Both the position numbers and the translations under genes were made by a program. A model generated the notes under the pieces. It saw nothing but the letters and a program-made list of their open reading frames with translations, had not been told where the DNA came from and made no database searches. Of a DNA stretch of 64,000 bases, positions 22,825 through 39,505 are shown one piece after another (the stretch's first letter is position 1; every line of letters starts with the position of its first letter). Origin of the DNA: an uncultured bacterium (GTDB lineage: Bacteria > Hydrothermota > Tepidihabitantia > Tepidihabitantales > DTDR01); the NCBI GenBank assembly GCA_964505415.1, contig CAZDHW010000009.1:1102-65101 (forward strand), written 5' to 3'.

Positions 22825-24142
22825 AAGAAATGCCCTCAATTTCTTTTTGATTATCTTCTTTTTCTTTATTTCCTTTTTATTTTTCTTTATTACCCAAAAA
22901 TATAACTTCCAAATTTCTTTACTTATCTTTCTTTTGCCTTTCTTTTTACTCTTTATCTTTTTATACCCAGAAATCGGCTTAAATTTCATTTTAAACGAAC
23001 CCCTTCTTTATTTTATCTTACCCATTTTGCCAATTGCTGAAGGTTTTAGAAGAGCATCATTCACCCTCTTTATCTTTTTCCTTTTATTAATTGCTTTTAT
23101 CTACCAGATAGTGAAAAATCCAAAGGTTATTCACCATTTTATTTCTCAACTTAAAAAACCCCTATTTATCTTACTGGCGATAATTGGTCTCTGTCTTTTT
23201 ATCAGCGTAAGTAGATTGCCTTTAGCTTTTTTGGAATACGGCTATGTAAAATTCTTTTCTTTTCTTTTGCTTGCCTTTTTGCCTTCTTTGGCACTTCTCT
23301 TTTTAGGCAACGAAGAAAAAAGATTAAAAAGATTTATTTTCGCTTTTGCCTTTTTTACTTTCCTCTTTTTTGTTTATGCCAATTTTTTGATTATGAAAGA
23401 AGGAATTGAAAATTTTTTGGAAAAAGAAATTATTCCTTATCGTTTAGGCTTTTCTTTAAGTTGCGTTGTCTTTGGTCGCTGGGCAGGAATTGGTGTTTTA
23501 TTAGCTTTTCTTTTATTTATCACTACCAGAAACAAACTTGTTAAAATAATTGTCCTTCTTTTACTTCCGGTTCTTTTATATCTTTTACTCTTATCTGCAA
23601 CCCGGGGAGCAATTTTGGCTTTGGCAATTACCCTTTTTACTTTCTTCTTTTTGAGATTGAAGAATTTTAAAGAAAAGATTGCCCTTATCCTTCTCTTTAT
23701 CTTTCTTTTCTTTATCTTCTATTCTTTAATCCCTTCAATTATCAGAGAACGATTAACCTATTTTGAAGATGAAAGTGCTCTTAATCGTTTAGAATTTATT
23801 GGCCTGGCATTTCAAAACTTTTTCTCTTCGCCATTATTAGGCAAAGGTTTAGGGACTTTTCCTTATTATAATTACCATTCGCTCTATCCCCACAATATCT
23901 TTGCCGAATTTGCTTGTGAGACCGGTTTCTTAGGTCTTATTCCTTTTTTACTTTTTATCTTCTTTGCTTTTAAAGAGATGTTTAAAAGATTAAAAGTAAA
24001 AGAAATTACTTCCCTCTTCCCGGCTTTTCTTTTTCTTTATCTTTTTGTCTCCAGTCAATTTTCTTTTGATATTGGTAATAATTCTCTTTTATTTTTTGCT
24101 GGTATTTTTTTGAGTTTAAAGGAAGAAAAAAATGAAAAATAG
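22805..24142 (+). CDS. O-antigen ligase/polymerase (Wzy_C) family membrane protein
   Basis: Polytopic. Large periplasmic loop region with SATRGAILALAI-type motif characteristic of Wzy_C/O-antigen ligase. Confidence 0.55.
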   Translation: MVNMMVKRNALNFFLIIFFFFISFLFFFITQKYNFQISLLIFLLPFFLLFIFLYPEIGLNFILNEPLLYFILPILPIAEGFRRASFTLFIFFLLLIAFIYQIVKNPKVIHHFISQLKKPLFILLAIIGLCLFISVSRLPLAFLEYGYVKFFSFLLLAFLPSLALLFLGNEEKRLKRFIFAFAFFTFLFFVYANFLIMKEGIENFLEKEIIPYRLGFSLSCVVFGRWAGIGVLLAFLLFITTRNKLVKIIVLLLLPVLLYLLLLSATRGAILALAITLFTFFFLRLKNFKEKIALILLFIFLFFIFYSLIPSIIRERLTYFEDESALNRLEFIGLAFQNFFSSPLLGKGLGTFPYYNYHSLYPHNIFAEFACETGFLGLIPFLLFIFFAFKEMFKRLKVKEITSLFPAFLFLYLFVSSQFSFDIGNNSLLFFAGIFLSLKEEKNEK

Positions 24143-26303
24143 ATTCTTATTACTTGCCGATATCAATTTGGCGACCTTTGAAGGTTCTACCGCCCATTTT
24201 TTAGGAGTTTTAACTGGCTTTAAGAAATTAAAACTTTCACCAATAGTTCTATTGCCTAAACCTTATCCCCCATTAAATGCCCTTCTCAAAAAGAATTTGG
24301 AAGAAATCCAAATCCATTTTTATCCTTCTTTTGGTGATTATTCTTCTTTTATGAGCAAATTACGCTATTTTTTAAGCCTTATTTATTTCTTAAGAATATT
24401 AATAAAAAATAAACCAAATATTATCTATTGCCGTTTTATGCCGTTATTCCTTTTCCATTTAGTAATTGCTAAGATTTTAAAAAAGAAAATAATCTTAGAA
24501 GTTAATAATACCCCTACCGATTTTTCTTATCGGCGCAATTTTGGCTCTTTTCTTAATAAATTAATTCCGCTATTTTACCTTTTAAGTGGAAAAATCGCTG
24601 ATAAATTAATCGTTGTTGCCAGTGGTATGAGAAAGGACTTAATAAATTTGGGAATTGATAAAAGAAAAATTGCTCTTATTCCTAACGGTACTAATCCTGA
24701 AATCTTTAAACCCCAGAAGTCGGTAATAAAGAAGAACTTTTATGTTGGTTTTCTTTCTAAAATTGATAACTACCACGATTTTGAAAAGATAATTACTCTC
24801 AGTGAAGTCTTAAAAGAAGAAAAAGAAATCAAATTTCTTATCATTGGTAAAGTTGAAAATCCTAAATTAAAAGCCGAGATAAAAATGAGAAATTTAGAAG
24901 AAAAATTTATCTTTACCGGAGAAATCCCCTATTTCCAAGTACCTTTTCATATTAATCTTTTCGATATTGCTCTCATCACCACTCCCCAGAAATTTTGTGG
25001 TTATACCTCACCAATTAAACTCTTTGATTATGCTGGTTGTGGCAAGATTATCCTTGTTAATAAAGAATTGGTTAAAAAAGAAAAAAGTTTGCGGGCAATT
25101 CCGATGATTACTTATTCTTCAGTAGCTGATTTAAAAGAAAAGATTTTGCTGATTAAAGATAATTATCACTACTATTTAGAAAATTACGGCGAAAAGGCAA
25201 GGCAGTCAGTTTTAAAGAGATACAACTGGGTGACAATTGTTAAAAAATCGCTAAAAGGAATTACGGAATTAGAAGAAAGCAAGAAAAGAAAAATTAAAAA
25301 GAAAATCATCTTACAGGTTATTGGCAATTTGAGTGGTGGCGGCGCTCAGACATTACTTTTAAATTTCTTAAAAGAAAAAGAGGCCCAGAAATTTAATTTT
25401 GAAATCTTTACTTTTAAAAAGAAATATTCCCTTTTAACTTTTATCAATTTGTTAAAGAAAATAAAGAAAGTTAAACCGGATATTATCCATGCCCACCTAT
25501 TTCCGGAACTTTATTATGTTGCTTTTGCTTCTTTCTTCTATAAAAAACCAAAATATCTTTATACCGAACATAACATCTTTAACCGCCGCCAAAAATATAA
25601 ATTTCTTTATCCCTTAGAAAGCTTTGTCTATCAACGATATGATAAAATAATTGCTTGTGCCCATATGGTAAAAGAACAGTTAACCAAATACCTTCCCCAA
25701 ATAAAAGAAAAAATAGTTGTTATCCCTAACGGTTTTTCTCTTAACGAAAAGGAGATAAAAGAAAATGAAGAAAAGGCAGATTTGTGCTTTATTGGCCGGC
25801 TGGAAGAGCAAAAGGGAGTTGATATCCTCTTGGCGGCATTAAAGATTTTAAAGGAAAAAGGAATTTCACCGAAAACTTTTATTGTTGGCTATGGCAGTTG
25901 GGAAGAAAGATTAAAAGCTTTAAGAGAAAAGGAAAAACTTTTTAACATAAAGTTTTTGGGAAAAAGAGAAGATGCCCTTTCCTTTTTGAAAGCCAGCAAG
26001 ATTTTTGTTTTACCCTCCCGGTGGGAAGGTTTGCCAATCACGATTTTAGAAGCGGCTTCATTAAAAAAACCAATAATTGTTACCAATGTTGGTGGCGTAA
26101 AAGAAGTTTTAACGGAAGAAGAGGCAATGATTATTGAAAAAGAAGAACCACAACTTTTGGCTAACGCCATTGAAGAACTGCTTTTTAATGAAAAACTACA
26201 AAAAGAGTTTGCGGAAAAAGCCTATGTCAAAGTAAGCAATCATTTTTCCATAAAAACTTTTAGTAAGAAAATGGCAAGTTTATACGAAAGTTTGTTAAAA
26301 TGA
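24132..26303 (+). CDS. Tandem glycosyltransferase (two GT-B/GT4-like domains fused)
   Basis: C-terminal half carries GT4 EX7E-type region (GRLEEQKGVDILL...LPSRWEGLPITILEAASLKKPII). N-terminal half has an independent GT-B-like Rossmann pattern. 723 aa. Confidence 0.65.
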   Translation: MKNRFLLLADINLATFEGSTAHFLGVLTGFKKLKLSPIVLLPKPYPPLNALLKKNLEEIQIHFYPSFGDYSSFMSKLRYFLSLIYFLRILIKNKPNIIYCRFMPLFLFHLVIAKILKKKIILEVNNTPTDFSYRRNFGSFLNKLIPLFYLLSGKIADKLIVVASGMRKDLINLGIDKRKIALIPNGTNPEIFKPQKSVIKKNFYVGFLSKIDNYHDFEKIITLSEVLKEEKEIKFLIIGKVENPKLKAEIKMRNLEEKFIFTGEIPYFQVPFHINLFDIALITTPQKFCGYTSPIKLFDYAGCGKIILVNKELVKKEKSLRAIPMITYSSVADLKEKILLIKDNYHYYLENYGEKARQSVLKRYNWVTIVKKSLKGITELEESKKRKIKKKIILQVIGNLSGGGAQTLLLNFLKEKEAQKFNFEIFTFKKKYSLLTFINLLKKIKKVKPDIIHAHLFPELYYVAFASFFYKKPKYLYTEHNIFNRRQKYKFLYPLESFVYQRYDKIIACAHMVKEQLTKYLPQIKEKIVVIPNGFSLNEKEIKENEEKADLCFIGRLEEQKGVDILLAALKILKEKGISPKTFIVGYGSWEERLKALREKEKLFNIKFLGKREDALSFLKASKIFVLPSRWEGLPITILEAASLKKPIIVTNVGGVKEVLTEEEAMIIEKEEPQLLANAIEELLFNEKLQKEFAEKAYVKVSNHFSIKTFSKKMASLYESLLK

Positions 26304-28159
26304 TGCAAAAGAAAATTATTCATATTCTTGGAGCTTCAAAGTTTGGTGGTATTGTTCAGTATTTGGCTTTTCTTATTGAGAGACAATTGAAAGATAATTA
26401 CCAAGTAGCAATTTTAACGGAAGACGAAAAGATAAAAAGTTATTTTCAAAAGCATTTTCCGCAAGTGAAAATAGTGACTACCAAAAAGGTTTATAAAAGA
26501 GAGATTTCGCCTTTCTATGACCTTTGGGCACTTTTAAGAACTATTAAGATTTTAAAAGGTTATTCGATTGTTCATACCCACACCTCTAAGGGTGGCTTTA
26601 TTGGCCGGCTGGCTGCCAAAATCTGTCGAATTCCATTGATCATCCATACTGCCCACGGGTTTGCCTTCCATGAGTTCTCCTCTAAAAAAGCAACCCTTTT
26701 CTATTCTTTTTTAGAAAGATTAGCTAGTTATTTTTGTGACAAAATTATCCTTCTTAATAAAAAGGATTACCAATTGGCTAAAAAATTTAAAATTGGCAAC
26801 GAAAAGAAATTGGCACTCATTTATAACGGCATTGATTACCAAAAAATTGAAAAAGAGAAGCCTGATTTTTCTATCCGGGAAAAATTGGGTTTAAAAGCCA
26901 AAGATTTCCTTATCACTTTTGTCGGTCGTTTATCACCACAAAAAAACCCCGAAATTTTAATTCGGGCAATGAAAGAACTGGTGAAAGAAAATAATAATAA
27001 AAAGATTTGTCTGTTACTAATTGGTGAAGACATGGGAGAAAAAGAAAAATTGTTGAGATTGATAAAGGAATTTCAGTTAACTAATAATGTCCACTTTTTA
27101 GACTTTGTGAAAAATCCCATTCCCCTTCTAAAAGCCAGTGATTGCTTTGTGCTTCCTTCCCTCTGGGAGGGATTATCAATCGCGCTGTTAGAAGCCATGG
27201 CCTCTTCCTTACCAGTAATTGCCTCCAATATCAAAGGGAATAACGAAATAATTACTGATGGAATAAATGGCTTCCTCTTTTTGCCCAATAATGAAAAGGA
27301 TTTAAAAGAAAAGATAATGCTTTTATTAAATAATGAAGAACTGCGACTAAAAATGGGAAAAGAGGGGAAAGAAACCATTATAAAAAGATTTTCTAAAGAA
27401 AGATTTCAAGAAGAAACAATGAAAATTTATAATTTTCGAAAAGAAAATAAAGAAGCTAACAAAAGAGAGAAAAATATTTCTCCATACTTAAATTCTTTTG
27501 CTAAAAGGACTTTTGACATTTTCTTTTCCCTCTTTTTATTAATCTTAACTTTACCACTTTTTATTCCTGTACTGCTAATCCAATTGTTTTATTTTAAAAA
27601 TAAACTCTTTTTCACTCAGGAACGAAGAGGAAGAAATTTGAAGATATTTAAAGTTTATAAATTCCGAACAATGAAAATTAATGCCGAAAAATTGAAAAGA
27701 GAAGACGGCTCTTCTCTTTATCTTAAAAACGACCCGCGGGTAACAAAATTTGGAAGATTTTTAAGAGAATTTGGTTTAGACGAATTGCCTCAAATATTTA
27801 ATGTTTTAAAAGGAGAAATGAGTATTGTGGGGCCGAGACCGGATGAAGTCTTACCTTTAGAGCTTTATAAAGATAAAACAAAATTTTTCGCTAAACCTGG
27901 TTTAACCAGTTTATCAATTATTAATGGCCGAAATAATTTGCCTTTAAATTTGAGAAACGAAATTGAAGGTTTTTATTGTCAAAAAGCATCGTTTATTTTG
28001 GATTTAAAAATTATTTTAAAAACAATTTTAATAATTTTAAAAAGAGAAGGAATTTATAATAAGCAGGAGGTGTGTGATGAGGAGCGCCTATTTATTAACT
28101 TTAAAGGGAGAGGGGTTTATGAAAAAATTAAATATTCTACCGGAAAATCTCGGAGCTAA
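26300..28159 (+). CDS. GT4 glycosyltransferase fused to C-terminal small phosphoglycosyl transferase (Bac_transf / PglC-WbaP-like) domain
   Basis: N-terminal GT4 motifs (GRLSPQKN, LPSLWEGLSIALLEAM). C-terminal re-entrant helix FDIFFSLFLLILTLPLFIPV plus KFRTM, DELPQ and SIVGPRP motifs of polyprenyl-phosphate sugar-1-P transferases. Confidence 0.75.
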   Translation: MMQKKIIHILGASKFGGIVQYLAFLIERQLKDNYQVAILTEDEKIKSYFQKHFPQVKIVTTKKVYKREISPFYDLWALLRTIKILKGYSIVHTHTSKGGFIGRLAAKICRIPLIIHTAHGFAFHEFSSKKATLFYSFLERLASYFCDKIILLNKKDYQLAKKFKIGNEKKLALIYNGIDYQKIEKEKPDFSIREKLGLKAKDFLITFVGRLSPQKNPEILIRAMKELVKENNNKKICLLLIGEDMGEKEKLLRLIKEFQLTNNVHFLDFVKNPIPLLKASDCFVLPSLWEGLSIALLEAMASSLPVIASNIKGNNEIITDGINGFLFLPNNEKDLKEKIMLLLNNEELRLKMGKEGKETIIKRFSKERFQEETMKIYNFRKENKEANKREKNISPYLNSFAKRTFDIFFSLFLLILTLPLFIPVLLIQLFYFKNKLFFTQERRGRNLKIFKVYKFRTMKINAEKLKREDGSSLYLKNDPRVTKFGRFLREFGLDELPQIFNVLKGEMSIVGPRPDEVLPLELYKDKTKFFAKPGLTSLSIINGRNNLPLNLRNEIEGFYCQKASFILDLKIILKTILIILKREGIYNKQEVCDEERLFINFKGRGVYEKIKYSTGKSRS

Positions 28160-28868
28160 ATCGGATATCTATACCGATTATCTCAATTTAGATATCCTGC
28201 GAATAATTGAAGCCGGCGGAATTGTAAAAGTTTTTTACGAAGATAAGAATAAAGAAATTATCGGTTTAGCCACTGCTGAATTTAATGAAAATCTCTTTAT
28301 TATTCCTTACCTCTTTGCTCCTAATCTGTCTTTAAAAATCAAACTGCTAAGCGAAATTATTAATGAAGGCAATTGCTCAAATATCTTAATCAAAATTTCT
28401 AATAACGACGAAAAGTTTATTAACTACCTTAAAGAAAATAATTTCAAATTGATAAACAGCATTATCCTCTTTCTTGGTAATCAAGAAAATCTGAAACCGG
28501 AAATTATTACTACTTTTGAAGATACTTTAAAATCGGAAAAAATGGAAATTACCACCAGCAATCTTTCACCAATAATTTACTACCATTTTCTAATGAAAGA
28601 TGGTAAATGTATTGGTGTCCTTAATGCTCAAAAAGTAGCCAAAGATTTTCCGATTATAAAAATTAACACCATTTATATCGACGAGAAATTTCGAAAAAGA
28701 AATTGCGGAAGTCTTCTTTTATCATCTTTTTTAAAATGTCTTTTAAAAGAGAAAAATTATTATGTAATTAGTGAAGTTCCTATGGGCAATCTCCCGGCAA
28801 TCAGACTTTTTTCTAAATTTAATTTTGGAATAATTGGCGCTTTTAAAATTTTAATGAAAGGAAAATAA
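28119..28868 (+). CDS. Hypothetical protein, possible GNAT-fold N-acetyltransferase
   Basis: C-terminal IYIDEKFRKRNCGSLLLSSFL...AIRLFSKFNF loosely resembles GNAT motif A/B. ORF track N-terminus (28074) overlaps the previous gene; internal MKKLN start used. Confidence 0.3.
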   Translation: MKKLNILPENLGAKSDIYTDYLNLDILRIIEAGGIVKVFYEDKNKEIIGLATAEFNENLFIIPYLFAPNLSLKIKLLSEIINEGNCSNILIKISNNDEKFINYLKENNFKLINSIILFLGNQENLKPEIITTFEDTLKSEKMEITTSNLSPIIYYHFLMKDGKCIGVLNAQKVAKDFPIIKINTIYIDEKFRKRNCGSLLLSSFLKCLLKEKNYYVISEVPMGNLPAIRLFSKFNFGIIGAFKILMKGK

Positions 28869-28874
28869 GTAACG

Positions 28875-30023
28875 ATGAAGAGTTTTAATTTTATTCCTTT
28901 TGCTCGACCTCATATTACTGAAGAAGAAGTGAACGCCGTTATGGAAACCTTAAAATCCGGTTGGTTAACCACGGGAAAAAGAACAAGGGAATTTGAAGAG
29001 GAATTTAAAAAATATATCGGTGCGCAATATGCCATCGCGGTGAATTCTTGCACCAGTGGACTTTTCTTAGTTTTAAAAGCTTTAGGAATAAAAGAAGGAG
29101 ACGAAGTAATCATTCCCACTTGGACATTCTGTGCTACGGCTAATGTGGTTATCCATTGCGGTGCCATCCCAGTTTTTACTGATGTGGCTTATGATTATCT
29201 TTTGCCACCCGAGGAGATCGAGAAGAAAATCACTAAAAAAACTAAAGCGATTATTCCTGTTCATTTTGCCGGAAAGAGTTGCGATATGAAAAAAATAAAA
29301 GAAATTGCTGAGAAATATCACCTTTATGTAATTGAAGACGCGGCTCACGCCTGCGGTACTATTTATCAAGGCAAAAAAGTTGGGAAAGAATCTTTAGCAT
29401 GCGTCTTTTCTTTTTATCCAACGAAAAACATCACTACCGGTGAAGGGGGTATGGTTGTTACCAATAATAAAGAGTTAGCAGAAAAGATAAGAATGATGGC
29501 TCTCCACGGTTTAACGCTTAATGCTTATGACCGCTATCAAAAAAATGGCAGTTGGTATTACCAAGTTGTTTATCCGGGGTATAAATGTAATATGACCGAT
29601 ATTCAAGCGAGTATCGGTCTTTGCCAATTAAGAAAGATCGAGAAGTTGATTAAAAGAAGACAAGAGATTATCAATTATTACCAAGAAAATCTCAAATATC
29701 TGCCAGATTTAATTTTACCGGAAACAGAAATTGTTGATCAAAGAGTAAGCTGGCACCTTTATGTAATAAGAATTTCAAAAACCGCAAAAATGGGGCGAGA
29801 TGCTTTAATTGATTTTTTAAGAGAAAAAAATATTGGGACATCGGTACATTTCATTCCTCTTCATCTTCATCCCTATTATCAAAAAACTTATAATTTAAAT
29901 CCTAAAGATTTTCCCGTAGCAAACACTCTCTTTTCTTCTTGTCTTTCTTTACCCCTCTATCCCGATTTAACTAAAGAAGAGCAAGATTTTATTATTTATT
30001 CTTTAAAGGAGGCATTATGTTAA
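28875..30023 (+). CDS. DegT/DnrJ/EryC1/StrS-family PLP-dependent sugar aminotransferase
   Basis: FIPFARPHITEEEVNAVMETLKSGWLTTG N-terminus. PLP lysine region FSFYPTKNITTGEGG. Confidence 0.85.
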   Translation: MKSFNFIPFARPHITEEEVNAVMETLKSGWLTTGKRTREFEEEFKKYIGAQYAIAVNSCTSGLFLVLKALGIKEGDEVIIPTWTFCATANVVIHCGAIPVFTDVAYDYLLPPEEIEKKITKKTKAIIPVHFAGKSCDMKKIKEIAEKYHLYVIEDAAHACGTIYQGKKVGKESLACVFSFYPTKNITTGEGGMVVTNNKELAEKIRMMALHGLTLNAYDRYQKNGSWYYQVVYPGYKCNMTDIQASIGLCQLRKIEKLIKRRQEIINYYQENLKYLPDLILPETEIVDQRVSWHLYVIRISKTAKMGRDALIDFLREKNIGTSVHFIPLHLHPYYQKTYNLNPKDFPVANTLFSSCLSLPLYPDLTKEEQDFIIYSLKEALC

Positions 30024-31465
30024 AAAAGTTGAATTTTAGCATTAGTTATCGATTATTGGCTGATGTTTTAATTTTAACATTTTCTTATTCTTTTGTGAAC
30101 TTCTTAACTAACCATCGTCTGCCCAATTTTCTTTCTCTTTATTTTCTTGTCACTTTTTGCTTATTTATCTTTTCTCTTTGCGGTTTCTATACTTACGGAA
30201 GAACCTATCGGGGAAGATACAAATTCCTTTTAATCCTTTTTGCCAATTCGTTAGCTTTCTTTTTATTTTATTACTTATCCCCCCTCTTTTTATTCCCTCA
30301 ACAATTACGGACACTTTTTTTTACTTACCTTTTAGCAACTTTTCTCTTGTCTTTTGCTCGTCTTTTTCTTTTATTATCAAACCATTTTACTTATTTAGAG
30401 AAAAAAAGAGCCCGGGTTATTAAAAAACCAATTGAAAGGATTTTGGTAATTGGGGGTGCCGGTTATATCGGTTCGGTGCTAGTAAGAAAATTATTAAAAT
30501 TAGGTTACAAAGTAAGAATCTTAGACAACTTTCTTTACGGAAAAGAGAGCATAAAAGAACTTATGAAAAACAAATCTTTTGAAGTAGTGGAAGGCGATTT
30601 TCGTCACATTAATATTTTAACCGAAGCCTTGGAAAATTGCGATGCCTTAATCCATTTAGGAGCCATTGTTGGTGACTCTGCTTGTGCGCTTTCCGAAAAG
30701 TTAACTATTGAAACTAATCTTCTGGCTACTAAATTTATTATTCAGGTAGCAAAAAGTAAAAATTGCCAGCGGTTTATTTTTGCTTCTACTTGTTCGGTCT
30801 ACGGTGCCAGCGATAACGAATATCTTACCGAAGAAAGCAAAACTTTTCCGGTTTCACTTTATGCCAAAACTAAATTGGATTCGGAAAAAATCCTCCTCAA
30901 AGAAGGAAAAGAGCTGGTTACTACTATTTTAAGATTTGCTACTGTTTACGGACCTTCCTATCGGGAAAGATACGATTTGGTGGTTAATCTTTTATCTTTA
31001 AAAGCAGTAAAAGAAAAGAAAATAACGGTTTACGGTGGTGAACAATGGCGACCTTTCATCCACATTGACGATCTTTGTGAAGGAATTATTAAGGTTCTCT
31101 TAGCAAAAGAAGAACTGGTAAGAGATCAGATTTTTAATTTAGGAGATACTAAAGAAAATTACCAATTAAAAGAGATTGGGGAAATTATCCAAAACATTGT
31201 TCCCGATGCGGAATTAATTATCCTACCGGAGACAAACGATAGAAGAAATTATCGGGTCTCCTTTGAAAAGATTAAAAAAGTTTTATCTTTTACTTGTCAA
31301 AAAAAAGTAAGAGATGGCGTCATTGAAATGATTGAAAGGATAAAACAAAATGGTAAAGGTTATTTTTCACCCGACTTTTTCCAATGTGTTTCTAATTATG
31401 AGAGAATTAAAAATTGTAAAAAAGAAAGTTATTGGCTGGAATTAGTTAAAGAGGAGGTCTTATGA
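30017..31465 (+). CDS. Membrane-anchored NAD-dependent nucleotide-sugar epimerase/dehydratase (extended SDR)
   Basis: Four N-terminal TM helices, then GGAGYIGS Rossmann motif and YAKTK (YxxxK) catalytic motif. TM-anchored dehydratase architecture resembles PglF/WbpM-type enzymes. Confidence 0.7.
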   Translation: MLKKLNFSISYRLLADVLILTFSYSFVNFLTNHRLPNFLSLYFLVTFCLFIFSLCGFYTYGRTYRGRYKFLLILFANSLAFFLFYYLSPLFLFPQQLRTLFFTYLLATFLLSFARLFLLLSNHFTYLEKKRARVIKKPIERILVIGGAGYIGSVLVRKLLKLGYKVRILDNFLYGKESIKELMKNKSFEVVEGDFRHINILTEALENCDALIHLGAIVGDSACALSEKLTIETNLLATKFIIQVAKSKNCQRFIFASTCSVYGASDNEYLTEESKTFPVSLYAKTKLDSEKILLKEGKELVTTILRFATVYGPSYRERYDLVVNLLSLKAVKEKKITVYGGEQWRPFIHIDDLCEGIIKVLLAKEELVRDQIFNLGDTKENYQLKEIGEIIQNIVPDAELIILPETNDRRNYRVSFEKIKKVLSFTCQKKVRDGVIEMIERIKQNGKGYFSPDFFQCVSNYERIKNCKKESYWLELVKEEVL

Positions 31466-31875
31466 GATGGGTTATTTTTCTCGGAATCTTAACTTTAGCA
31501 ATTTTCAAATTTTTAATTGCGCAACCAACGAATAAAGAAATGCCAATAAAAGCCCATATTTGGGGAGAAGTAAAAAATCCTGGCTCTTATTATCTTTCTT
31601 ATACCGGTGATATTTTAGAACTGATTTCGCAAGCCGGCGGACCCACACCTAATGCCGATTTATCAAAAATCACTTTAATTGTCGCCAAAGAGAAAAAAAG
31701 GATAGGTCTTAATCTTAATAAAATGATTAAAAAAGGTGAAATCTTGCTCCTTTCTAACGGTGATGTTGTGATCATTCCTCGTTCAAAATTAGCTACTTTA
31801 AAAGAAGCTATACCATTCATAACTACTTTAGCAGTATTTGTTAATCTTTATTTAACTTATATAACCAGGAGGTGA
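31462..31875 (+). CDS. Polysaccharide export protein (Wza-like Poly_export/SLBB domain)
   Basis: Signal/TM N-terminus. GEVKNPGSY...GDIL and DVVIIP motifs of Poly_export/SLBB. Confidence 0.55.
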   Translation: MRWVIFLGILTLAIFKFLIAQPTNKEMPIKAHIWGEVKNPGSYYLSYTGDILELISQAGGPTPNADLSKITLIVAKEKKRIGLNLNKMIKKGEILLLSNGDVVIIPRSKLATLKEAIPFITTLAVFVNLYLTYITRR

Positions 31876-31878
31876 AAA

Positions 31879-33969
31879 ATGAAAGAGTATAATCTGGAGA
31901 AAATTATTTTAATTATTAAAGAGAAAAAAAAGGTAATCATTACCATCTTTCTCCTTTCCTTGATAATTGCTCTTCTTTTTACTTTTTTAACCAAACCTGA
32001 ATACGAAAGTAGGGCCACTATTTTAGTAGAAGGTGATAAACTAAACTCTGATTTGTTCTTTTCCTCTCCCTTATCCTTTGCTAAACAAAAAAGTCTGTTA
32101 TATAACTACTCAGAAATTTTAAAATCGCATAACTTAATGCAAACGGTTTTAGAAGAATTAAAAAAGACTGAAGCGAAAAATTATTTTAAAAATATTGAAG
32201 ATTTACAGAAAAAGGTAACAATAAAAATTATCAAAGAAACCGACATTTTAAATATTAAAGCGAAAAGCGAGAAACCCGAGGCAGCAGAAATTCTTTGCGA
32301 AGTTTATGCCAAAACCTTTGAAAACTTTGTCGCTAAAATCACCAAAGAAGATGTGCAAAAAATTAAAGAATTTACTTATAACCAATTAAAAGAAATTGAA
32401 AAAGAATTACAGGCTAAAGAAAGAGAAATCACTGAATTTAAAAAGAAAAATCGGATTGCTGATTTAGACCAAGGAACCAAGGAACTTTTTCAAAATATAA
32501 TTAACATCAAAACCCTTTATGATGAAGTCCTTGCTCAATACCACGAAAAGCAAGAAGAACTCTTTTCTCTAAAAAATACCTTTAACGAAAATCAAAGGCA
32601 TTTCTACAACCAATTAATTCAAGAAAAATCTTCTTTAATTAACGAAATGCAAAAAACTTACCAAAATTTAGAAATTGAAAAAACCCACCTTTTATTATCC
32701 GGTTATGAAGAGAATAACGAAAAAATGAAAAAAATTGAAGAAAAACAAAACGAAATAAGAGAAAAGTTACTTTCCCTCACACCGGCATCTTTTATTGAGC
32801 CGTTAGAATTTCTCAAAACCTTAGAAGGCCAAGCAATCTTTAAAGAAATTGAACTTAATGCTCTTAAGGCAAAATTAACCAAACTTTCGCAATTACTTTC
32901 TCAATACGAAAGGGAATTAGCAAAATTACCAGAAAAAGAAAGAACTTATTTGAAATTGAGCCGCGATTTAGAAATTCTCCAAAAAATTTATTCCCTTTTA
33001 AGGGAAAAACACGAAGAAGCCAAAATAAACGAAGCCGGTAGGATTTCTGGAATAACTTTAATTGAGGCAAAAACACCGGCTAAAAAAATTAAACCTTCGC
33101 TTTCTTTTAATATCATTACTGCTCTCTTTTTAGGGTTAGCATTTGCTTTCGTTACTGTTTTCTTATCAGACTATTTTAATAACACGATAAAATCAATTAC
33201 TGATGTAGAAAAATTGAATGTTGGTGTTTTGACGACTATTCCGAATCTTAATAAAAAAGAAAAAACTAATGGTAACGGTGTTACTAAATTTATTATTCCT
33301 TTCTCCGATGAAGAAAAAACTTCGGCCGAAAGTTATCGGATATTAAGAACTTCCTTATTATGGTCCTTTTTCAACGAAAATAAAAAAGTCGTTTTAATAA
33401 CTTCTGCCAATCCTGAAGAAGGAAAAACAACTGTCGCCTGTAATCTTGCTTACATTCTTGCTCAAGGTGGAATAAAAACATTGCTAATTGACTTGGATTT
33501 AAGAAAACCTCGCCTTCATTCTATTTTCTCTATTAATAGAAAACCAGGATTTACTGACCTGATTCTCAATAATCTTAAACCAGGTAGCAATGGCCATATT
33601 CCTAAAACCAATTTTCCTAATCTTGATCTTCTTCCGGCCGGTTCGTTGATACCTTCGCCAGCAGATTTTTTAGAAAAAAAATTTGTTGAGGAATGGTTAA
33701 ATAAATTTAGAGAAGAATATTCAGCAATAATTATTGATTCACCGCCAGCGTTAATCGCTGCTGATGTGCCGATTCTTACTAAAAAGGTTGATGGTGTTTT
33801 ATTAGTGTGCGGCTTTCTGAAAACCGATTTAAACCAGTTAGAAGAAACAATAAAAATTCTTAACGAAAAGGAAAAGAAAGTTATTGGTTGTGTTTTAAAC
33901 TTTTATGAACCGTTAAAAAAATATCATAATTATTACTATTATCATTATAAATATCGAAAAGAAAAATAA
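31879..33969 (+). CDS. Polysaccharide co-polymerase / bacterial tyrosine autokinase (Wzc-like, Wzz domain + CpsD ATPase + C-terminal Tyr cluster)
   Basis: N-terminal TM plus Wzz/GumC region, long coiled coil, second TM. Walker A TSANPEEGKTTVACNLA. C-terminal YHNYYYYHYKY tyrosine cluster. Confidence 0.75.
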   Translation: MKEYNLEKIILIIKEKKKVIITIFLLSLIIALLFTFLTKPEYESRATILVEGDKLNSDLFFSSPLSFAKQKSLLYNYSEILKSHNLMQTVLEELKKTEAKNYFKNIEDLQKKVTIKIIKETDILNIKAKSEKPEAAEILCEVYAKTFENFVAKITKEDVQKIKEFTYNQLKEIEKELQAKEREITEFKKKNRIADLDQGTKELFQNIINIKTLYDEVLAQYHEKQEELFSLKNTFNENQRHFYNQLIQEKSSLINEMQKTYQNLEIEKTHLLLSGYEENNEKMKKIEEKQNEIREKLLSLTPASFIEPLEFLKTLEGQAIFKEIELNALKAKLTKLSQLLSQYERELAKLPEKERTYLKLSRDLEILQKIYSLLREKHEEAKINEAGRISGITLIEAKTPAKKIKPSLSFNIITALFLGLAFAFVTVFLSDYFNNTIKSITDVEKLNVGVLTTIPNLNKKEKTNGNGVTKFIIPFSDEEKTSAESYRILRTSLLWSFFNENKKVVLITSANPEEGKTTVACNLAYILAQGGIKTLLIDLDLRKPRLHSIFSINRKPGFTDLILNNLKPGSNGHIPKTNFPNLDLLPAGSLIPSPADFLEKKFVEEWLNKFREEYSAIIIDSPPALIAADVPILTKKVDGVLLVCGFLKTDLNQLEETIKILNEKEKKVIGCVLNFYEPLKKYHNYYYYHYKYRKEK

Positions 33970-36359
33970 TGAACAAAAAAATTCTTATTGTTGATGATGA
34001 TACCCTTTTTTCCCAATCATTAAAAGAAATCCTTGCTTCTCGAGGTTACGAAGTAGCTACCGCTAATACTGCTCAAGAAGCTTTAACAAAAATAAATGAA
34101 GATTATGAAGTTTGGATAGTTGATTTAAAATTACCGGATAAAGATGGCTTAGAATTGGTTGAAGAAATAAAAACTATCAAATTTCCACCACCAATAATTA
34201 TTATTTTAACTGGCTTTTCCTCCTTGCCGGCAGCCAAAAAAGCAATCACTCTTAAAGCCGATGCTTATTTAGAAAAGCCTATTGATCCGGATAGACTTTT
34301 TCTCACCCTTTACCAATTACTGAAAGAAAAGGAAGAAGCATGTAATCGTTTTAATTATTTAAAAAAAATTTTAGAAAAGGCAAGTCTTCCCGCAGCCCTT
34401 ATTGTTGACAGCAAAATAATTTTTTACAATTACTCTTTCCCGATAGAAAAGTGGCAACCTTTTGATCTTACTAATAGGAATGATTTAAAAATTGATAACC
34501 AACTTTATCGGTGCGTAGCCATTCCGGTTGAAGAAAAAGTTTCGTTAATTTTTTTAATCAATCTTTCTGATAAAGAAAGGCTAATCGAAGAATACCAAAC
34601 AATTTTTTCTTATCTTCCCTTTAAGATTTATTTAGTGAAAGATAACTATCAAGTTGTTGGTCAAAACAAATTCTGTTACCAGATTTTTAAAAATTATTCT
34701 TATCCTTGTTCCTTTTTTGGTGAAACCTGTTTACTTCTTCAGGCGAAAACTGCTAAATCAGCTGTAAAAGCCTTAAAAATAATTGAGGGGAAACATTGGG
34801 AAGAAAACTGCCTGCCTTTAAAAAATAACCAATTCCTTCTCTTTTTTATTGACCGAAGCGAAGAAGTTGAAAAAAACCAGAAATTATATCTGGCAACCGA
34901 AGAATGGGAAAAAACTTTTAATGCCATTAATGATATGATCGTAATTATCGACAAAAATTTTAACATTCTGAAAGTTAACAAAGCAACTTATCAATTTTTT
35001 AATAATAAAAAATTAATCGGCAAAAAATGCCATGAAATCTTTCACCAAACAAAAGAACCAATTATTAATTGCCCTTTTGTAAAAACCCTAAGGACAAAAA
35101 CTTCTTTTACTGAAGAAATAGAGATAAATGATCAAACATTTATCATTTCCGTTTCCCCTATTTTTGATGAAAAAGGCGAAGTGGAAAGATGTGTGCATGT
35201 CGCCCGTAACATTACAAATTTAAAGATTATTGAAGAAAATCTCAGAGAAAAAACTAAAGAATTAACTATTCTAAACCAAGAACTTCAAAATTCCCAAAAG
35301 GAATTGATAAAAACCGCAGAAAGATTAGCTAAAACGAATGAAGAATTGATTAAACTATCAAATGCTAAAACCGAATTTGTCCAAATTCTTTCTCACGAAA
35401 TGCGAACACCGCTCACCGCTATTTTAGAAGGTAGTAATCTCCTTTACGAAAATTGCCAAGAAGCCGATGCCAAAAAACTTCTTCAGTTAATCAAGAATAA
35501 TGCTCAAAAATTATTTGAATTAATTAACGATTTATTAGATTTAACTAAAATAGAAAGTGGCCGAATTGAATTATTACCGCAAGCAGTAGATATTAACAAA
35601 ATATTTTCGCAATTAATCAATAATCTCCAAGTTATCGCTAAAGAAAAAGGGGTAAAAATTATTAAAGAAATTGATGAAAAAATTCCTTTGGCTTTTGTTG
35701 ATGAAAATGCTTTTTATCGAATAATAGTCAACTTATTATCTAACGCTGTCAAATATAGCAAAGAAAATGGCGAAATTCGGATCCGAGCTTTTCCCCATTT
35801 TCAAGAAAAGAAAATTATTATTTCGATTAAGGATAATGGTATCGGCATTCCTAAAAGCGAACAATACAAAGTATTTCAGAAATTTGCTCAAATAGTTCAT
35901 CCTGGTTATCAGCCAATTAAGGGAACCGGGTTGGGATTAGCACTGTGTAAAGAATTGGTCGAAAAAAGCGGCGGTTCGATTTGGTTTGAGAGTGAAGAAC
36001 ATAAAGGGACCACTTTTTATTTCACAATTCCTATTTACGAAGAGGAAGAAGATTTTCAATATTATAAGCAGCAGCTTTTAAAAAAAGCAAAAGAACTGAA
36101 TTTAGATTTGGGTATTTTTTTAATTAAAAAAGATGGGGAGGATTTTAAGAAAGAGGAAAAAGAAATGATCAAAAATTTAGTTAAGGATTTTATGAGTGAA
36201 ACGGCTGAAATAAAAAATTTTTATAAAAAAATAGTGGTAATGGTAATTGGCAAAGAAAAGGAACTAAAAGAGAAATTTAAGAAATTTAATAGATTAATTA
36301 GGCAGGCAATTAAAGGAATCATTATTGAAGAACAGTATGAAAAAGATTTTAATAATTGA
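33969..36359 (+). CDS. Hybrid signalling protein: N-terminal receiver (REC) + PAS + histidine kinase
   Basis: REC: ILIVDDD...WIVDLKLPDKDG. PAS region. H-box LSHEMRTPLTAIL. HATPase NLLSNAVKYS, DNGIGIP and GTGLGLALC. About 120 aa C-terminal extension of unknown function. Confidence 0.8.
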   Translation: MNKKILIVDDDTLFSQSLKEILASRGYEVATANTAQEALTKINEDYEVWIVDLKLPDKDGLELVEEIKTIKFPPPIIIILTGFSSLPAAKKAITLKADAYLEKPIDPDRLFLTLYQLLKEKEEACNRFNYLKKILEKASLPAALIVDSKIIFYNYSFPIEKWQPFDLTNRNDLKIDNQLYRCVAIPVEEKVSLIFLINLSDKERLIEEYQTIFSYLPFKIYLVKDNYQVVGQNKFCYQIFKNYSYPCSFFGETCLLLQAKTAKSAVKALKIIEGKHWEENCLPLKNNQFLLFFIDRSEEVEKNQKLYLATEEWEKTFNAINDMIVIIDKNFNILKVNKATYQFFNNKKLIGKKCHEIFHQTKEPIINCPFVKTLRTKTSFTEEIEINDQTFIISVSPIFDEKGEVERCVHVARNITNLKIIEENLREKTKELTILNQELQNSQKELIKTAERLAKTNEELIKLSNAKTEFVQILSHEMRTPLTAILEGSNLLYENCQEADAKKLLQLIKNNAQKLFELINDLLDLTKIESGRIELLPQAVDINKIFSQLINNLQVIAKEKGVKIIKEIDEKIPLAFVDENAFYRIIVNLLSNAVKYSKENGEIRIRAFPHFQEKKIIISIKDNGIGIPKSEQYKVFQKFAQIVHPGYQPIKGTGLGLALCKELVEKSGGSIWFESEEHKGTTFYFTIPIYEEEEDFQYYKQQLLKKAKELNLDLGIFLIKKDGEDFKKEEKEMIKNLVKDFMSETAEIKNFYKKIVVMVIGKEKELKEKFKKFNRLIRQAIKGIIIEEQYEKDFNN

Positions 36360-36717
36360 AGACGAAGAAGCTATTCGTTTTATTTTAGAAAAAAGGTTAA
36401 GCGATGCCGGCTACTTTGTTATTTCGGCAGAAGATGGAATTGAAGGGTTAAATAAACTGAGAAAAGAAAATCCTGATTTAATAGTTTTGGATTTAATGCT
36501 GCCGGGTTTAGACGGTTACCAAATATGTAGTTTAATAAAAAGAGATCGGCGATATGCTCATATCCCGGTACTTATTCTTACCGCCCGCATTCAACAGAAG
36601 GACTACGAAATGGCTATGGCGGTGGGGGCTGATGCTTTTTTAACCAAACCTTTTGAAAGTCAAGTGCTTTTAAGCAAAATTGAAGAACTTTTAAAAAATA
36701 ATAAAAAGGAGGAATAA
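36325..36717 (+). CDS. Response regulator, receiver domain only
   Basis: KILIIEDEE...LIVLDLMLPGLDG...K. 130 aa with no output domain. 35-bp overlap with the hybrid kinase gene. Confidence 0.8.
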   Translation: MKNSMKKILIIEDEEAIRFILEKRLSDAGYFVISAEDGIEGLNKLRKENPDLIVLDLMLPGLDGYQICSLIKRDRRYAHIPVLILTARIQQKDYEMAMAVGADAFLTKPFESQVLLSKIEELLKNNKKEE

Positions 36718-36720
36718 ACT

Positions 36721-38400
36721 ATGCGGGACAAAAAAATTATTTACCAAGTATTGCAGGAATTTGGTCTGTCCCAAAAAGATGTAAAAAAATTTGAAGAAGA
36801 AAGTCAACAAAGTAACATTTCTTTAGAAGAGTTATTAATCAATAGAAAGATAATTAACAAAGAGGATTTCTATTTAGCTCTTTCCCGAAGATTGGGTGTA
36901 CCTTATTTAGATATTTCTGGTTACATGGTTGACAAAGATGTTTTGACTTTAATTCCAGAAGAAGCCTGCCGAAGTTTAAATGTTTTTCCTTTATTTAAAA
37001 TTGGTGATACCTTAACCGTAGCCATGGCCAATCCCACTGATGTGGATATCATTGATGAATTAAGATTGAAAACCGGCTTAGAAATTACCCCAGTTTTAGC
37101 AAGCGAAGAAGATATCAAAAATGCTCTCGATAAATATTACAAATCAAGCTCCCAGACTCAAATTGAAGAAATCAGTCAAATAGCCAGTGAGGAAGTAACC
37201 CCAGTGGAAATCACTGACGAAATTAAAAAGTTAGAAGAAGAAGCTTCCCAAGAACCAGTTGTTAAATTTGTAAATACCGTAATTTCTTATGCAGTAAAAA
37301 ACCGAGCTTCTGACATTCACATTGAACCGGAAGAAAATATCTTAAGGGTAAGATTAAGAATCGACGGTGTATTACATACTTTTACCGAAGTTGCTAAAAA
37401 TATGCATCCAGCGATAATTTCTCGCATTAAAATTTTAGCACGTTTAAACATCGCTGACAAATTACGACCCCAGGATGGGCAATTTCAAATGACCATTGAT
37501 AGTAAAAAAGTTGATTTCCGGGTCTCTACTTTTCCTACCTTTTGGGGAGAATGCGCGGTTTTAAGATTATTAGATAAGTCTTCAGTATTAATTGGACTCG
37601 GGGAATTAGGTTTTTCTCCGGAAAATCTTATAAAATTTAATGCTTTGATTAAAAAACCTTACGGAATCATTTTGGTAACCGGACCTACCGGCAGTGGTAA
37701 AACTACTACTTTATATTCTGCATTGGAAGCTATCCGTAGCGAAGAGAGAAATATTATTACTTTGGAAGATCCGGTTGAATATACCTTGCCATTAATCCGC
37801 CAGGTACAAATCAATCCCAAACAAGGTTTAACTTTTGCCACCGGTCTCCGCGCAGTGTTAAGGCAGGACCCCGATGTGATAATGGTCGGTGAAATCCGTG
37901 ATTTAGAAACTGCGGAGATTGCTGTTCAAGCAGCGTTAACCGGTCATTTAGTTTTTTCAACCCTTCATACTAATAATGCGGCTACCGCGGTTACCCGATT
38001 AGTAGATATTGGCGTGGAACCCTATCTTATTGCTTCTTCTTTGATCGGCGTTTTAGCTCAAAGATTGGTGAGAAAAATTTGTCCAGCTTGCAAAGAAGGT
38101 TACAAACCAAAGCCCGAAATTTTGAAATATTTAGGATTAGAAGAAAATATAGAATTATTTAAAGGTAAAGGATGTGAAGAGTGTAATAATACCGGTTATA
38201 AAGGAAGAACCGGTATTTTCGAACTGCTAATTATTGATGACACTATTAGAGAAATGATTTTAAAAAACAAAAGTGCTAACGAAATTCACCACACAGCAGT
38301 TGCCAAAGGAATGAAAACAATGCGCGACGATGGCTTTGAAAAAGTTAAAAAGGGAATAACAACTATTGAAGAAGTATTAAGAGTTACCGCTGTCTTTTAG
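36721..38400 (+). CDS. GspE/PilB-family secretion/pilus ATPase with N-terminal T2SSE_N (MshEN-like) domain
   Basis: Walker A GPTGSGKTT. Asp box LEDPVEY. Walker B MVGEIRD. His box TLHTNNA. Tetracysteine CPACK...CEECNNTGY. N-terminal T2SSE_N domain. Confidence 0.85.
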   Translation: MRDKKIIYQVLQEFGLSQKDVKKFEEESQQSNISLEELLINRKIINKEDFYLALSRRLGVPYLDISGYMVDKDVLTLIPEEACRSLNVFPLFKIGDTLTVAMANPTDVDIIDELRLKTGLEITPVLASEEDIKNALDKYYKSSSQTQIEEISQIASEEVTPVEITDEIKKLEEEASQEPVVKFVNTVISYAVKNRASDIHIEPEENILRVRLRIDGVLHTFTEVAKNMHPAIISRIKILARLNIADKLRPQDGQFQMTIDSKKVDFRVSTFPTFWGECAVLRLLDKSSVLIGLGELGFSPENLIKFNALIKKPYGIILVTGPTGSGKTTTLYSALEAIRSEERNIITLEDPVEYTLPLIRQVQINPKQGLTFATGLRAVLRQDPDVIMVGEIRDLETAEIAVQAALTGHLVFSTLHTNNAATAVTRLVDIGVEPYLIASSLIGVLAQRLVRKICPACKEGYKPKPEILKYLGLEENIELFKGKGCEECNNTGYKGRTGIFELLIIDDTIREMILKNKSANEIHHTAVAKGMKTMRDDGFEKVKKGITTIEEVLRVTAVF

Positions 38401-38404
38401 AATT

Positions 38405-39505
38405 TTAAGTCTTTTTTCTTTTTTCGGAAATCCTTTTTAAAACCTCAGGCAAAGTAGTATATTCCATCTCTTCCAAAGGTAATCGATGAGGCTCAAAAGG
38501 ACCGTGACTACGCATAAAATTAGCAATCCGATTAGCTTCTTTTCGGGCATAATCAAACGCTGGGTCGTCAAAAAGATCTCGCGGACCAATTAACATTCCT
38601 TGAGCAATTTGAAAACCAAGAGCAATAACCCGAGGAGGACCATCAAATCTTGATGGATTGGCTTCTTTTTGACTAACGGGCATCAAAGGTCCGTAATGGG
38701 AACCACGCATCCAGCCGCTTACTAAATGAGGAAACGCAAAAGGCTCCAGAATCTCCCCTACCGCTGGCAACCCGGCTTGTGCCCGAACAATTAAAACCGG
38801 GTCATCTTTACCAACATATCTTCCGGCAATTAATGCCAATTTTTGGGTAGAAGAAACCGCAGCGATTTCCCCATCCTTTTTTTTATAAACAGCTTTAATT
38901 ATGTAATTTTCACAAGAACCAATCAAAACTAACAAATCATACATTTCTTCGGGACAAGAAAGGAAAAAATTTTCATCTTTTTTGATATCGTGGACTTCAA
39001 ATTTAAAACCATCATGCATTGCTGGGTCAATTATTAAACCGATAGTATTAAAGGGATCGGCGAATATTTTAAAAAGGGGAAAATTCCAGGCACCCGGTGC
39101 GCATTTATCACCCATAAAGATTACCACAGGTTCGGATTTTCTTTCAACAAACTCCATTTCAGCAACACCCGGCCCCATTCCCTTAACGTTTCCTGAAAAA
39201 GCATCAGCCAATAAATCTTGACCTGCGCCATAAAGTTTTAATTCTTTAGCCAATTCGGTACAAGCAACAAAAGTATCCCAAGCGAGCTTATGAATTTCCT
39301 GATTATCAACACCTTTATTATGGGTCATTATCAATTCCAAATCATCACCGCAATTAGTTACATAAAAATCAATAATTATTCCTTTAGCTTTTGCTTCCAG
39401 TAGTAAATCTTTAGCTTTTTCTAAAATTTGGGGATGCGAAGAAGAATGTCCCACATAACCCCCAATATCAGCTTTTATTACTGATAAAGTAATCTTTTCG
39501 GCCAT
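38405..39505 (-). CDS. fbp: Fructose-1,6-bisphosphate aldolase/phosphatase (class V, archaeal-type bifunctional FBPase)
   Basis: KITLSVIKADIGGYVGHSS, DLLADAFSGNVKGMGPGVAEME, FADPFNT, MRGSHYGPLMPVSQ and DDPAFD align along the full length with the Sulfolobus/Thermoproteus FBP aldolase/phosphatase. Strong SD AGGAGG. Confidence 0.85.
   Translation of the reverse strand: MAEKITLSVIKADIGGYVGHSSSHPQILEKAKDLLLEAKAKGIIIDFYVTNCGDDLELIMTHNKGVDNQEIHKLAWDTFVACTELAKELKLYGAGQDLLADAFSGNVKGMGPGVAEMEFVERKSEPVVIFMGDKCAPGAWNFPLFKIFADPFNTIGLIIDPAMHDGFKFEVHDIKKDENFFLSCPEEMYDLLVLIGSCENYIIKAVYKKKDGEIAAVSSTQKLALIAGRYVGKDDPVLIVRAQAGLPAVGEILEPFAFPHLVSGWMRGSHYGPLMPVSQKEANPSRFDGPPRVIALGFQIAQGMLIGPRDLFDDPAFDYARKEANRIANFMRSHGPFEPHRLPLEEMEYTTLPEVLKRISEKRKKT

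Follow-up and report, generated by a model that had tools for sequence, protein, structure and literature searches.

A PilB/GspE-class ATPase and its putative phosphorelay as the last genes of a Wzx/Wzy glycan operon in the WOR-3 lineage

Why would the motor of a type IV filament be encoded at the end of an exopolysaccharide (EPS) operon, with none of the other parts of a filament machine beside it? The question is raised by a 64,000-nucleotide stretch of DNA from an uncultured bacterium (positions 1431-65430 of a 66,569-bp contig; hereafter the window), in which the last three genes of a twelve-gene plus-strand operon (21451-38400) encode a histidine kinase with receiver (REC) and PAS domains, a receiver-only protein, and a PilB/GspE-class ATPase. 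The initial annotation, made from the letters alone, had placed these three genes directly after a bacterial tyrosine kinase (BY-kinase), and open reading frames (ORFs) with the corresponding Pfam domains were indeed found at 33969-38400. We regard them as a signalling-plus-motor module. On balance, and with moderate confidence, we favor the following reading: the ATPase is an ordinary motor of type IV filaments, the rest of its machine being encoded at another place in the genome; a dedicated phosphorelay switches it by way of a CheY-like partner; and its gene is co-transcribed with the exopolysaccharide genes.

By its sequence, the ATPase is a normal extension ATPase of a type IV filament, that is, of a type IV pilus or a type II secretion system. 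This is favored by full-length PilB and GspE model matches at or near the cutoff, together with intact catalytic and zinc motifs. In detail, the motifs that the initial annotation had described as intact were located as follows: Walker A (GPTGSGKTT, residues 321-329), Asp box (ITLEDPVEY, 346-354), Walker B (DPDVIMVGEIRD, 383-394), His box (GHLVFSTLHTN, 408-418), and, in the C-terminal domain, a tetracysteine zinc site composed of CPAC (454-457) and CEEC (485-488). An N-terminal helical region (residues 1-57) with degenerate MshEN motifs precedes the N1/MshEN domain, which is followed by N2 and the C-terminal ATPase domain. The gene has a strong ribosome-binding site, with the Shine-Dalgarno sequence AAGGAGG 8 nt 5′ of the ATG. 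The best solved relatives are Thermus PilF and the PilB proteins of Geobacter and Myxococcus (E values of 1e-139 to 1e-154). With PilB (TIGR02538; Geobacter 5TSG, M. xanthus 3JC8, Thermus PilF 6F8L) the ATPase shares the full-length architecture and all motifs; the model covers profile positions 5-562 of 564, whereas the score of 646.2 bits lies just below the equivalog cutoff of 675.65, and pilC, pilT, and pilM are absent from the contig. The GspE model (TIGR02533) gives 636.8 bits, above its cutoff of 630.25, and NCBI labels the close homologues GspE; the match, however, begins at residue 80, the first 79 residues being a PilB-like extra, and gspF, gspG, gspD, and gspL are not nearby.

The ATPase is an orphan in its surroundings, as the initial annotation had noted in finding no pilins, platform, or secretin nearby. 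Using Pfam, we scanned all non-nested window ORFs of at least 100 aa, except 62049-63707, for which a precomputed Pfam match to an aminoacyl-tRNA synthetase was available; among the scanned ORFs there was no T2SSF, PilM/N/O, secretin, N_methyl, or prepilin peptidase match. A six-frame motif scan of the window detected no prepilin-like N-terminus, the sole match being a chance one inside Wzc. Beyond the window, the contig extends for 1.4 kb on the left and 1.1 kb on the right, and these flanks hold two unrelated genes, an HhH-GPD gene (left) and a gene of 454 aa (right), so that no type IV pilus or type II secretion gene set lies just outside the window; look-ups with proteins of the left edge returned no record. 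The whole 66.6-kb contig contains no PilC, pilin, PilM, or secretin gene; the platform, prepilins, PilM/N/O or GspL/M, and secretin that accompany the ATPase in a type IV pilus or type II secretion locus are absent from it.

We compared the locus with those of homologous ATPases. The nearest proteins, at 87-98% identity, carry the annotation "candidate division WOR-3 bacterium", and at least two derive from hot-spring metagenome-assembled genomes (isolates JZ-2 and SKYB26); members of the 90% cluster of the ATPase sit on contigs of up to 1.56 Mb. A second WOR-3 group follows at 56-61% identity, and then Omnitrophota and Margulisiibacteriota at 52-57%. Gene order is the same as in the window in the close relatives (loci L001/L013, L002, L012, and L014). 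In the 56-61% group, L003/L063 and L066 have the order DegT-epimerase-SLBB-Wzc-(extra kinase)-REC/PAS kinase-REC-REC-ATPase, and L006 and L010 have TPR protein-DegT-REC/PAS kinase-REC (one to four copies)-ATPase without Wzc; DegT is the only glycan neighbor of the block in these two loci, and the link to Wzc is thus not universal. On the short contigs L064, L065, L067, and L069, the kinase and/or receivers lie directly 5′ of the ATPase. Taken together, the order kinase-REC (one to four copies)-ATPase is kept, down to an ATPase identity of 58%, in all WOR-3-group loci that have upstream sequence (the window, L001/2, L012-14, L003/63, L064-67, L069, L006, and L010). The block stands directly 3′ of Wzc in three lineages (the window clade, L003/L063, and L066), and DegT accompanies it in all five lineages.

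PilC was not found within 10 kb of the ATPase in any WOR-3-group locus, which extends the orphan state from the window to the clade, and the prepilins, PilM/N/O or GspL/M, and secretin are likewise missing over that distance. Among 44 loci of distant homologues from many phyla, by contrast, 34 have PilC next to the ATPase or close by, the exceptions being mostly short contigs. In a neighbor-joining tree, both WOR-3 ATPase groups form one clade (100 of 100 bootstraps), sister to 45 Omnitrophota-like proteins; the sister clade (Omnitrophota and Margulisiibacteriota) stands at 53-56% identity. Each of the three sister-clade loci that we looked at holds a full type IV filament cluster, in which PilC, pseudopilins, PilO, and a PilMN fusion are encoded: REC-ATPase-PilC-pseudopilins-YfhO-PilMN-PilO in Omnitrophota L008, the same order minus REC in Omnitrophota L073, and PilD followed by ATPase-PilC-PilT-pilins-PilMN-PilO-secretin in Margulisiibacteriota L074. 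Given the monophyly of the WOR-3 proteins and the full pilus clusters of the sister clade, the uncoupling from PilC looks like a single event at the base of the WOR-3 clade. Because the arrangement is conserved and monophyletic, the observation is more robust than the initial annotation could know.

We compared the WOR-3 and sister-clade ATPases, each against 11 PilC-linked outgroups. Identity to the outgroups was 40.8% for WOR-3 and 42.1% for the sister clade over the whole protein, 26.5% and 27.8% in N1, and 48.9% and 50.1% in the core. This relative-rate comparison revealed no acceleration of the WOR-3 ATPases in any domain, which argues that canonical partners have been retained. Pili have been observed on the sole cultured WOR-3 strain (PMC12285271), and a digester metatranscriptome study names WOR-3 as one of the phyla with a possible use of conductive pili (PMC7382037); pilus and secretion terms are absent from the supplements of two WOR-3 genome papers. 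The unaccelerated ATPase and the pili of the cultured strain favor a platform and subunits that are encoded elsewhere.

The motifs of the phosphorelay half of the module are intact as well. The kinase has intact H, N, G1, and G2 boxes (SHEMRTPL 475-482, LLSNAVKY 589-596, DNGIGI 622-627, and GTGLGL 652-657) and the residues DD, D52, T, and K in its own receiver; both receivers of the module keep the acidic pocket (DD or ED), the phospho-acceptor Asp, Thr, and Lys. The sensor of the kinase had been described as its N-terminal receiver plus a PAS domain. Both are present, yet the protein is more than a receiver with one PAS domain, as residues 112-312 and 690-796 have no Pfam match. For the receiver-only protein, the longest ORF starts from TTG 36325 (36325-36717), which is a mechanical call; its relatives start at the equivalent of ATG 36337, which is probably the true start (MKKILII...). 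The window contains just three receivers (18072-18479, 36325-36717, and the N-terminus of the kinase), and all three lack a DNA-binding output, as had been stated. The conserved kinase-REC-ATPase block supports the accompanying proposal that signalling here proceeds by protein-protein interaction.

The receiver 5′-adjacent to the ATPase belongs to one orthologous family across all WOR-3 lineages, and the extra receivers of some lineages form a second family. The window receiver matches that of Omnitrophota L008 with 119 bits, compared with 66 bits for the other receiver-only protein of the window. This orthology, which reaches the PilC-linked locus of Omnitrophota L008, indicates that the pairing of receiver and ATPase predates the move into the glycan operon. 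Adjacency kept across five lineages suggests that the kinase may be the cognate phosphodonor of the receiver.

Alignment of the kinase with orthologues from four other lineages drew attention to three segments. Residues 112-312 (window 34302-34904) are a 200-aa segment peculiar to the 31% GC clade, an ordinary PAS domain taking its place in the 41-44% GC relatives; its conserved cysteines (NYCYQEFKN.SYPC..LG.FCPL) may be a metal or redox site. Within the PAS domain, residues 351-370 (window 35019-35078) contain GKKC(H/Y)E(I/L).H...(4-9 residues)...CP, which is kept in nearly all lineages and suggests a Cys/His-liganded cofactor. The tail 3′ of HATPase_c (residues 690-796, window 36036-36359; about 105 aa) is conserved across lineages. 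One relative had a weak GGDEF match in this tail (26 bits, L006:5700-8159), and a diguanylate cyclase was rejected, as the alignment shows no GGDEF signature; the tail may be a decayed cyclase domain.

In the history and mechanism that we propose, the ancestral ATPase would have been part of a complete pilus-type cluster, with a CheY-like receiver as its neighbor. At the root of one clade of WOR-3, this receiver-ATPase pair would have parted from pilC, the pilins, and pilMNO, gained a REC-PAS-histidine kinase of its own, and come to lie 3′-terminally in a glycan operon of the Wzx/Wzy type. Two inputs would converge on the kinase, a cue sensed by PAS and the phosphorylation, by another kinase, of its N-terminal receiver; the kinase would then phosphorylate the single-domain receiver. 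Once phosphorylated, this receiver would bind the ATPase and alter how active it is or how it is recruited to a PilC platform, whose gene would lie in another part of the genome. Through co-transcription, filament assembly or secretion would rise together with exopolysaccharide, as in an attachment or biofilm program. Cyclic di-GMP (c-di-GMP) would have no input via the ATPase N-terminus. In this scheme we infer the phosphotransfer from the kinase to the receiver, the binding of the receiver to the ATPase, the presence of PilC and pilins elsewhere in the genome, and the co-transcription.

The last element of the scheme departs from the initial annotation, which had drawn an analogy to PilB proteins that bind c-di-GMP through an MshEN domain. 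MshEN receptors possess two tandem 24-residue motifs, RLGxx(L/V/I)(L/V/I)xxG(L/V/I)(L/V/I)xxxxLxxxLxxQ, with a 5-residue spacer, and a relaxed search form has also been described (Wang et al. 2016, PMC5013675). We aligned the ATPase to PilB of M. xanthus and Geobacter; the residues at the two motif positions are KIIYQVLQEFGLSQKDVKKFEEES and SLEELLINRKIINKEDFYLALSRR. The motifs begin and end as KII...S and SLE...R, with R replaced by K or S, the glycine of RLG by I or E, and Q by S or R, and the turn glycine is lost in the second copy. Neither the strict nor the relaxed pattern matched the ATPase or any of its 120 nearest homologues, PilC-linked ones included; the Geobacter PilB fragment, used as a control, matched. 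The N-terminal domain is homologous to that of V. cholerae MshE (5HTL, E = 4.5e-9; PF05157, 84.6 bits; PMC5013675), from which it differs in missing both motifs, and the Pfam match (58-144) falls outside the nucleotide-binding helices. Residue alignment and motif scans together speak against c-di-GMP sensing via the ATPase N-terminus, and an input through the MshEN domain is not supported. Accordingly, a Pfam "MshEN" match should not be taken to imply c-di-GMP binding. The window also encodes no GGDEF, EAL, or PilZ domain among the scanned ORFs. Of the two signs that the initial annotation had named as telling against itself, a degenerate MshEN motif and a loss of synteny in relatives, the first was found and the second was not.

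Output-less receivers that control a pilus motor are known from other bacteria, and such control, by protein contact, is proposed here. The receiver-only regulator DrdR of Xanthomonas acts directly on PilB (PMC13507683), the PATAN-REC proteins PixE and PixG act on PilB1 in Synechocystis (bioRxiv 10.1101/2021.06.11.447907), and PilG/PilH work with ChpA in Pseudomonas (PMC11656802). In the WOR-3 loci, the receiver, in one to four copies, is encoded directly beside the ATPase. The window differs from the precedents in that it has a single plain receiver without PATAN or a tandem pseudo-receiver, and in that the kinase is of the HisKA-type REC-PAS kind rather than CheA. The coupling of EPS and pili in M. 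xanthus (PMC5544727, PMC12802240) likewise brings a PilB-class ATPase and a single-domain receiver together with an EPS pathway of the Wzx/Wzy type. In Myxococcus, however, pilB lies in the pil cluster, its product binds c-di-GMP, and the receiver EpsW is fed by the CheA-like kinase Dif, whereas the window ATPase is encoded inside the EPS operon, has lost the N-terminal c-di-GMP motifs of the Geobacter and Myxococcus proteins, and has a dedicated HisKA kinase.

The operon itself encodes a glycan pathway. Its first nine genes are, in order, a MurJ/Wzx-like flippase, a Wzy_C polymerase or ligase, a GT4-GT4 protein, a GT4-Bac_transf phosphoglycosyl transferase fusion, a GNAT protein, a DegT aminotransferase, a membrane-anchored epimerase/dehydratase, an SLBB protein, and a Wzc-type BY-kinase; the REC-PAS kinase, the receiver, and the ATPase are genes 10-12. 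The flippase, Wzy-family polymerase, initiating transferase, and Wzz/GNVR P-loop kinase of a Wzx/Wzy pathway with a polysaccharide co-polymerase (PCP-2a) BY-kinase are all present. All junctions of the twelve genes overlap or are at most 6 nt apart, and the stop codon of the BY-kinase overlaps the start codon of the REC-PAS kinase (ATAATGA). Counts from promoter and terminator scans equalled those of shuffled sequence and are uninformative in this 31% GC DNA, with the exception of 29355-38400, where the hairpin scan detected no plus-strand terminator-like hairpin. The SLBB protein has no Poly_export (PF02563) match in Pfam/NCBIfam, so that it is not a full-length Wza-type protein; it is the sole candidate of the operon for outer-membrane export. 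The operon also contains no outer-membrane barrel gene that would account for passage across the outer membrane.

Several points weigh against a conventional motor with a distant machine. The search for PilC, pilin, PilM, and secretin genes of the organism, which covered the contig, found none. Over about 40% divergence of the ATPase, glycan genes have stayed with it, DegT throughout the five lineages and Wzc in three, which exceeds what a scattered pilus gene would need; the real partner of the ATPase could then be the polysaccharide machinery. Gene order is what points to both the phosphotransfer and the contact between receiver and ATPase, and the receiver stands beside the ATPase in just one of the three sister-clade loci. 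By analogy with Myxococcus EpsW (PMC12802240), the receiver could act on the phosphoglycosyl transferase instead.

One alternative is an ATPase that serves the polysaccharide pathway: without a PilC partner, the hexamer would act on either the initiating transferase or the Wzc/SLBB export complex, working as a mechano-enzyme or signalling through its nucleotide state, and the phosphorelay would gate polymer export. The clade-wide absence of PilC within 10 kb, set against its place in 34 of 44 distant loci, would suit such an orphan, as would the position of the module right after Wzc in three lineages with DegT in all five, the export route that is partly unaccounted for with an SLBB protein without Poly_export as the only candidate, and the known role of M. 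xanthus PilB as a regulator of exopolysaccharide output (PMC5544727). However, the ATPase, N1 domain included, evolves no faster than its PilC-linked relatives, and neither Wzc nor SLBB is near the module in L006 and L010. Moreover, we know of no PilB/GspE-class ATPase that functions without a PilC/GspF platform, and pilus genes are frequently scattered in other bacteria. We consider this explanation unlikely. Less likely still is its boldest form, in which the WOR-3 clade would have repurposed a PilB/GspE-class motor as a PilC-free, phosphorelay-gated energizer or checkpoint of Wzx/Wzy export, filling the gap left by an SLBB-only export protein; the secretion-coupled checkpoint suggested in the initial annotation is likewise speculation.

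It is just as doubtful as a polysaccharide-serving ATPase that the receiver regulates glycan synthesis, by an EpsW-like activation of the phosphoglycosyl transferase or Wzc, with the ATPase a co-transcribed passenger for a machine elsewhere. Phosphorylated EpsW is reported to stimulate the transferase EpsZ, apparently through direct contact, by a mechanism that the authors of the study propose to be widespread (PMC12802240). The EPS operon that holds the receiver does encode a Bac_transf enzyme (26300-28159), and the NCBIfam EpsW model is among the matches of the receiver. The score for that model (NF041866), however, is 73 bits against a cutoff of 200, and the transferase is a GT4-Bac_transf fusion rather than a large monotopic phosphoglycosyl transferase of the EpsZ/WbaP type; for want of the score and of such a partner, membership of the receiver in EpsW was rejected. 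The receiver also stays 5′ of the ATPase where the transferase and Wzc are absent within 10 kb (L006 and L010) and precedes ATPase-PilC in Omnitrophota L008.

Least probable is that the glycan decorates the filament, the operon (diNAcBac-type genes, flippase, and Wzy_C) being a pilin or protein O-glycosylation pathway with filament subunits as acceptors, for although its gene set presumably resembles the Neisseria pgl and Pseudomonas TfpO systems, sister-clade pilus clusters hold YfhO GT-C (L008 and L073) or Wzy_C-TPR near PilD (L074), and DegT is the one glycan gene always with the module, the Wzc-type co-polymerase/BY-kinase and the SLBB export protein point to a polymerized, exported polysaccharide, and a pilin gene is absent in and near the operon.

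Table 1. Coordinates of the module, the glycan operon, and neighboring features (window positions unless a locus is named).
Feature	Position	Strand	Description
Module of three genes	33969-38400	+	REC-PAS-histidine kinase, receiver-only protein, PilB/GspE ATPase; tightly packed
Histidine kinase, 796 aa	33969..36359	+	Pfam: Response_reg 5-111, PAS 313-418, HisKA 466-531, HATPase_c 578-689
Single-domain receiver, CheY-like	36337..36717	+	Pfam receiver, 98.8 bits; no further domain
PilB/GspE-class hexameric secretion ATPase, 559 aa	36721..38400	+	MshEN (N1) PF05157 58-144 (84.6 bits); T2SSE (N2 and C-terminal ATPase domain) PF00437 174-554 (477 bits)
Wzx/Wzy-type glycan operon, nine genes 5′ of the module	21451..33969	+	Pfam and NCBIfam
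GT4-Bac_transf fusion (transferase)	26300-28159	+	Pfam
SLBB-only protein, 137 aa	31462-31875	+	Hydrophobic segments at both ends
PCP-2a/BY-kinase, Wzc-like	31879..33969	+	Wzz, GNVR, and P-loop kinase domains; Tyr-rich C-terminal tail YHNYYYYHYKY
Class V fructose-1,6-bisphosphatase	38405..39505	-	PF01950, 620 bits; convergent; closes the operon; outside the system
NusG paralogue	L003:11737-12294, L066:11764-12276, L067:2904-3413, L007:4010-4543	-	

Some further observations concern the neighborhood of the module. The operon is closed by a convergent class V fructose-1,6-bisphosphatase gene, whose stop codon is 4 nt from that of the ATPase (38400-38405), with no terminator-like hairpin between the two genes. 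This enzyme occupies the position in the window clade; the lineages with 41-44% GC instead have, just 3′ of the ATPase, a convergent gene for a paralogue of NusG (177-185 aa, NusG and KOW). Within the operon, the set at 26300-31465 (GT4-Bac_transf, GNAT, DegT, and epimerase/dehydratase) looks suited to a 2,4-diamino-2,4,6-trideoxyhexose (bacillosamine-type) first sugar. In the product of the minus-strand gene at 53172-54083, an N-terminal extension of 156 aa that has no annotation is followed by a low-molecular-weight phosphotyrosine phosphatase domain (157-292); this protein could be a Wzb-type partner of the BY-kinase, though its gene is 19 kb distant. A second two-component pair, a CHASE4 histidine kinase and a receiver-only protein, is encoded at 18072-19917 on the minus strand; the CHASE4 kinase is a candidate for the upstream kinase of the N-terminal receiver of the hybrid kinase.

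Glycan-related genes also accompany the pilus clusters of the sister clade. A YfhO GT-C enzyme is encoded among the pseudopilin genes (L008:13677-16085 and L073:11500-13857), a Wzy_C-TPR fusion adjoins PilD in Margulisiibacteriota (L074:4486-7065), and both Omnitrophota clusters (L008 and L073) come directly after lipopolysaccharide-core and Kdo genes on the same strand. Elsewhere in the window, directly upstream of dnaN at 57254-60180 (minus strand), the gene of selenocysteine synthase SelA adjoins those of an arginine kinase resembling McsB and of a UVR-motif protein resembling McsA. Beyond the right edge of the window, a second contig of the same organism encodes three Por_Secre_tail (type IX secretion) proteins (L062:2-4604), which indicate that type IX secretion exists in the lineage.

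In Myxococcus and in cyanobacteria, physiology has shown that type IV pili and exopolysaccharide are coupled, though the wiring is indirect and debated. The themes combined here, a PilB-class motor, a CheY-like cofactor, and the co-regulation of exopolysaccharide and pili, are themselves known. If the ATPase is an ordinary pilus motor with its machine elsewhere, the locus would be a tidy regulatory co-localization rather than a new system. A single operon ties a motor of the pilus class, with its dedicated kinase and CheY-like switch, to a complete glycan pathway, and selection has held them together across a deep clade. With its thermostable proteins, the locus would offer a compact natural test bed for asking whether PilB-type motors are switched directly by receiver-only proteins and whether these motors in turn influence polysaccharide output.

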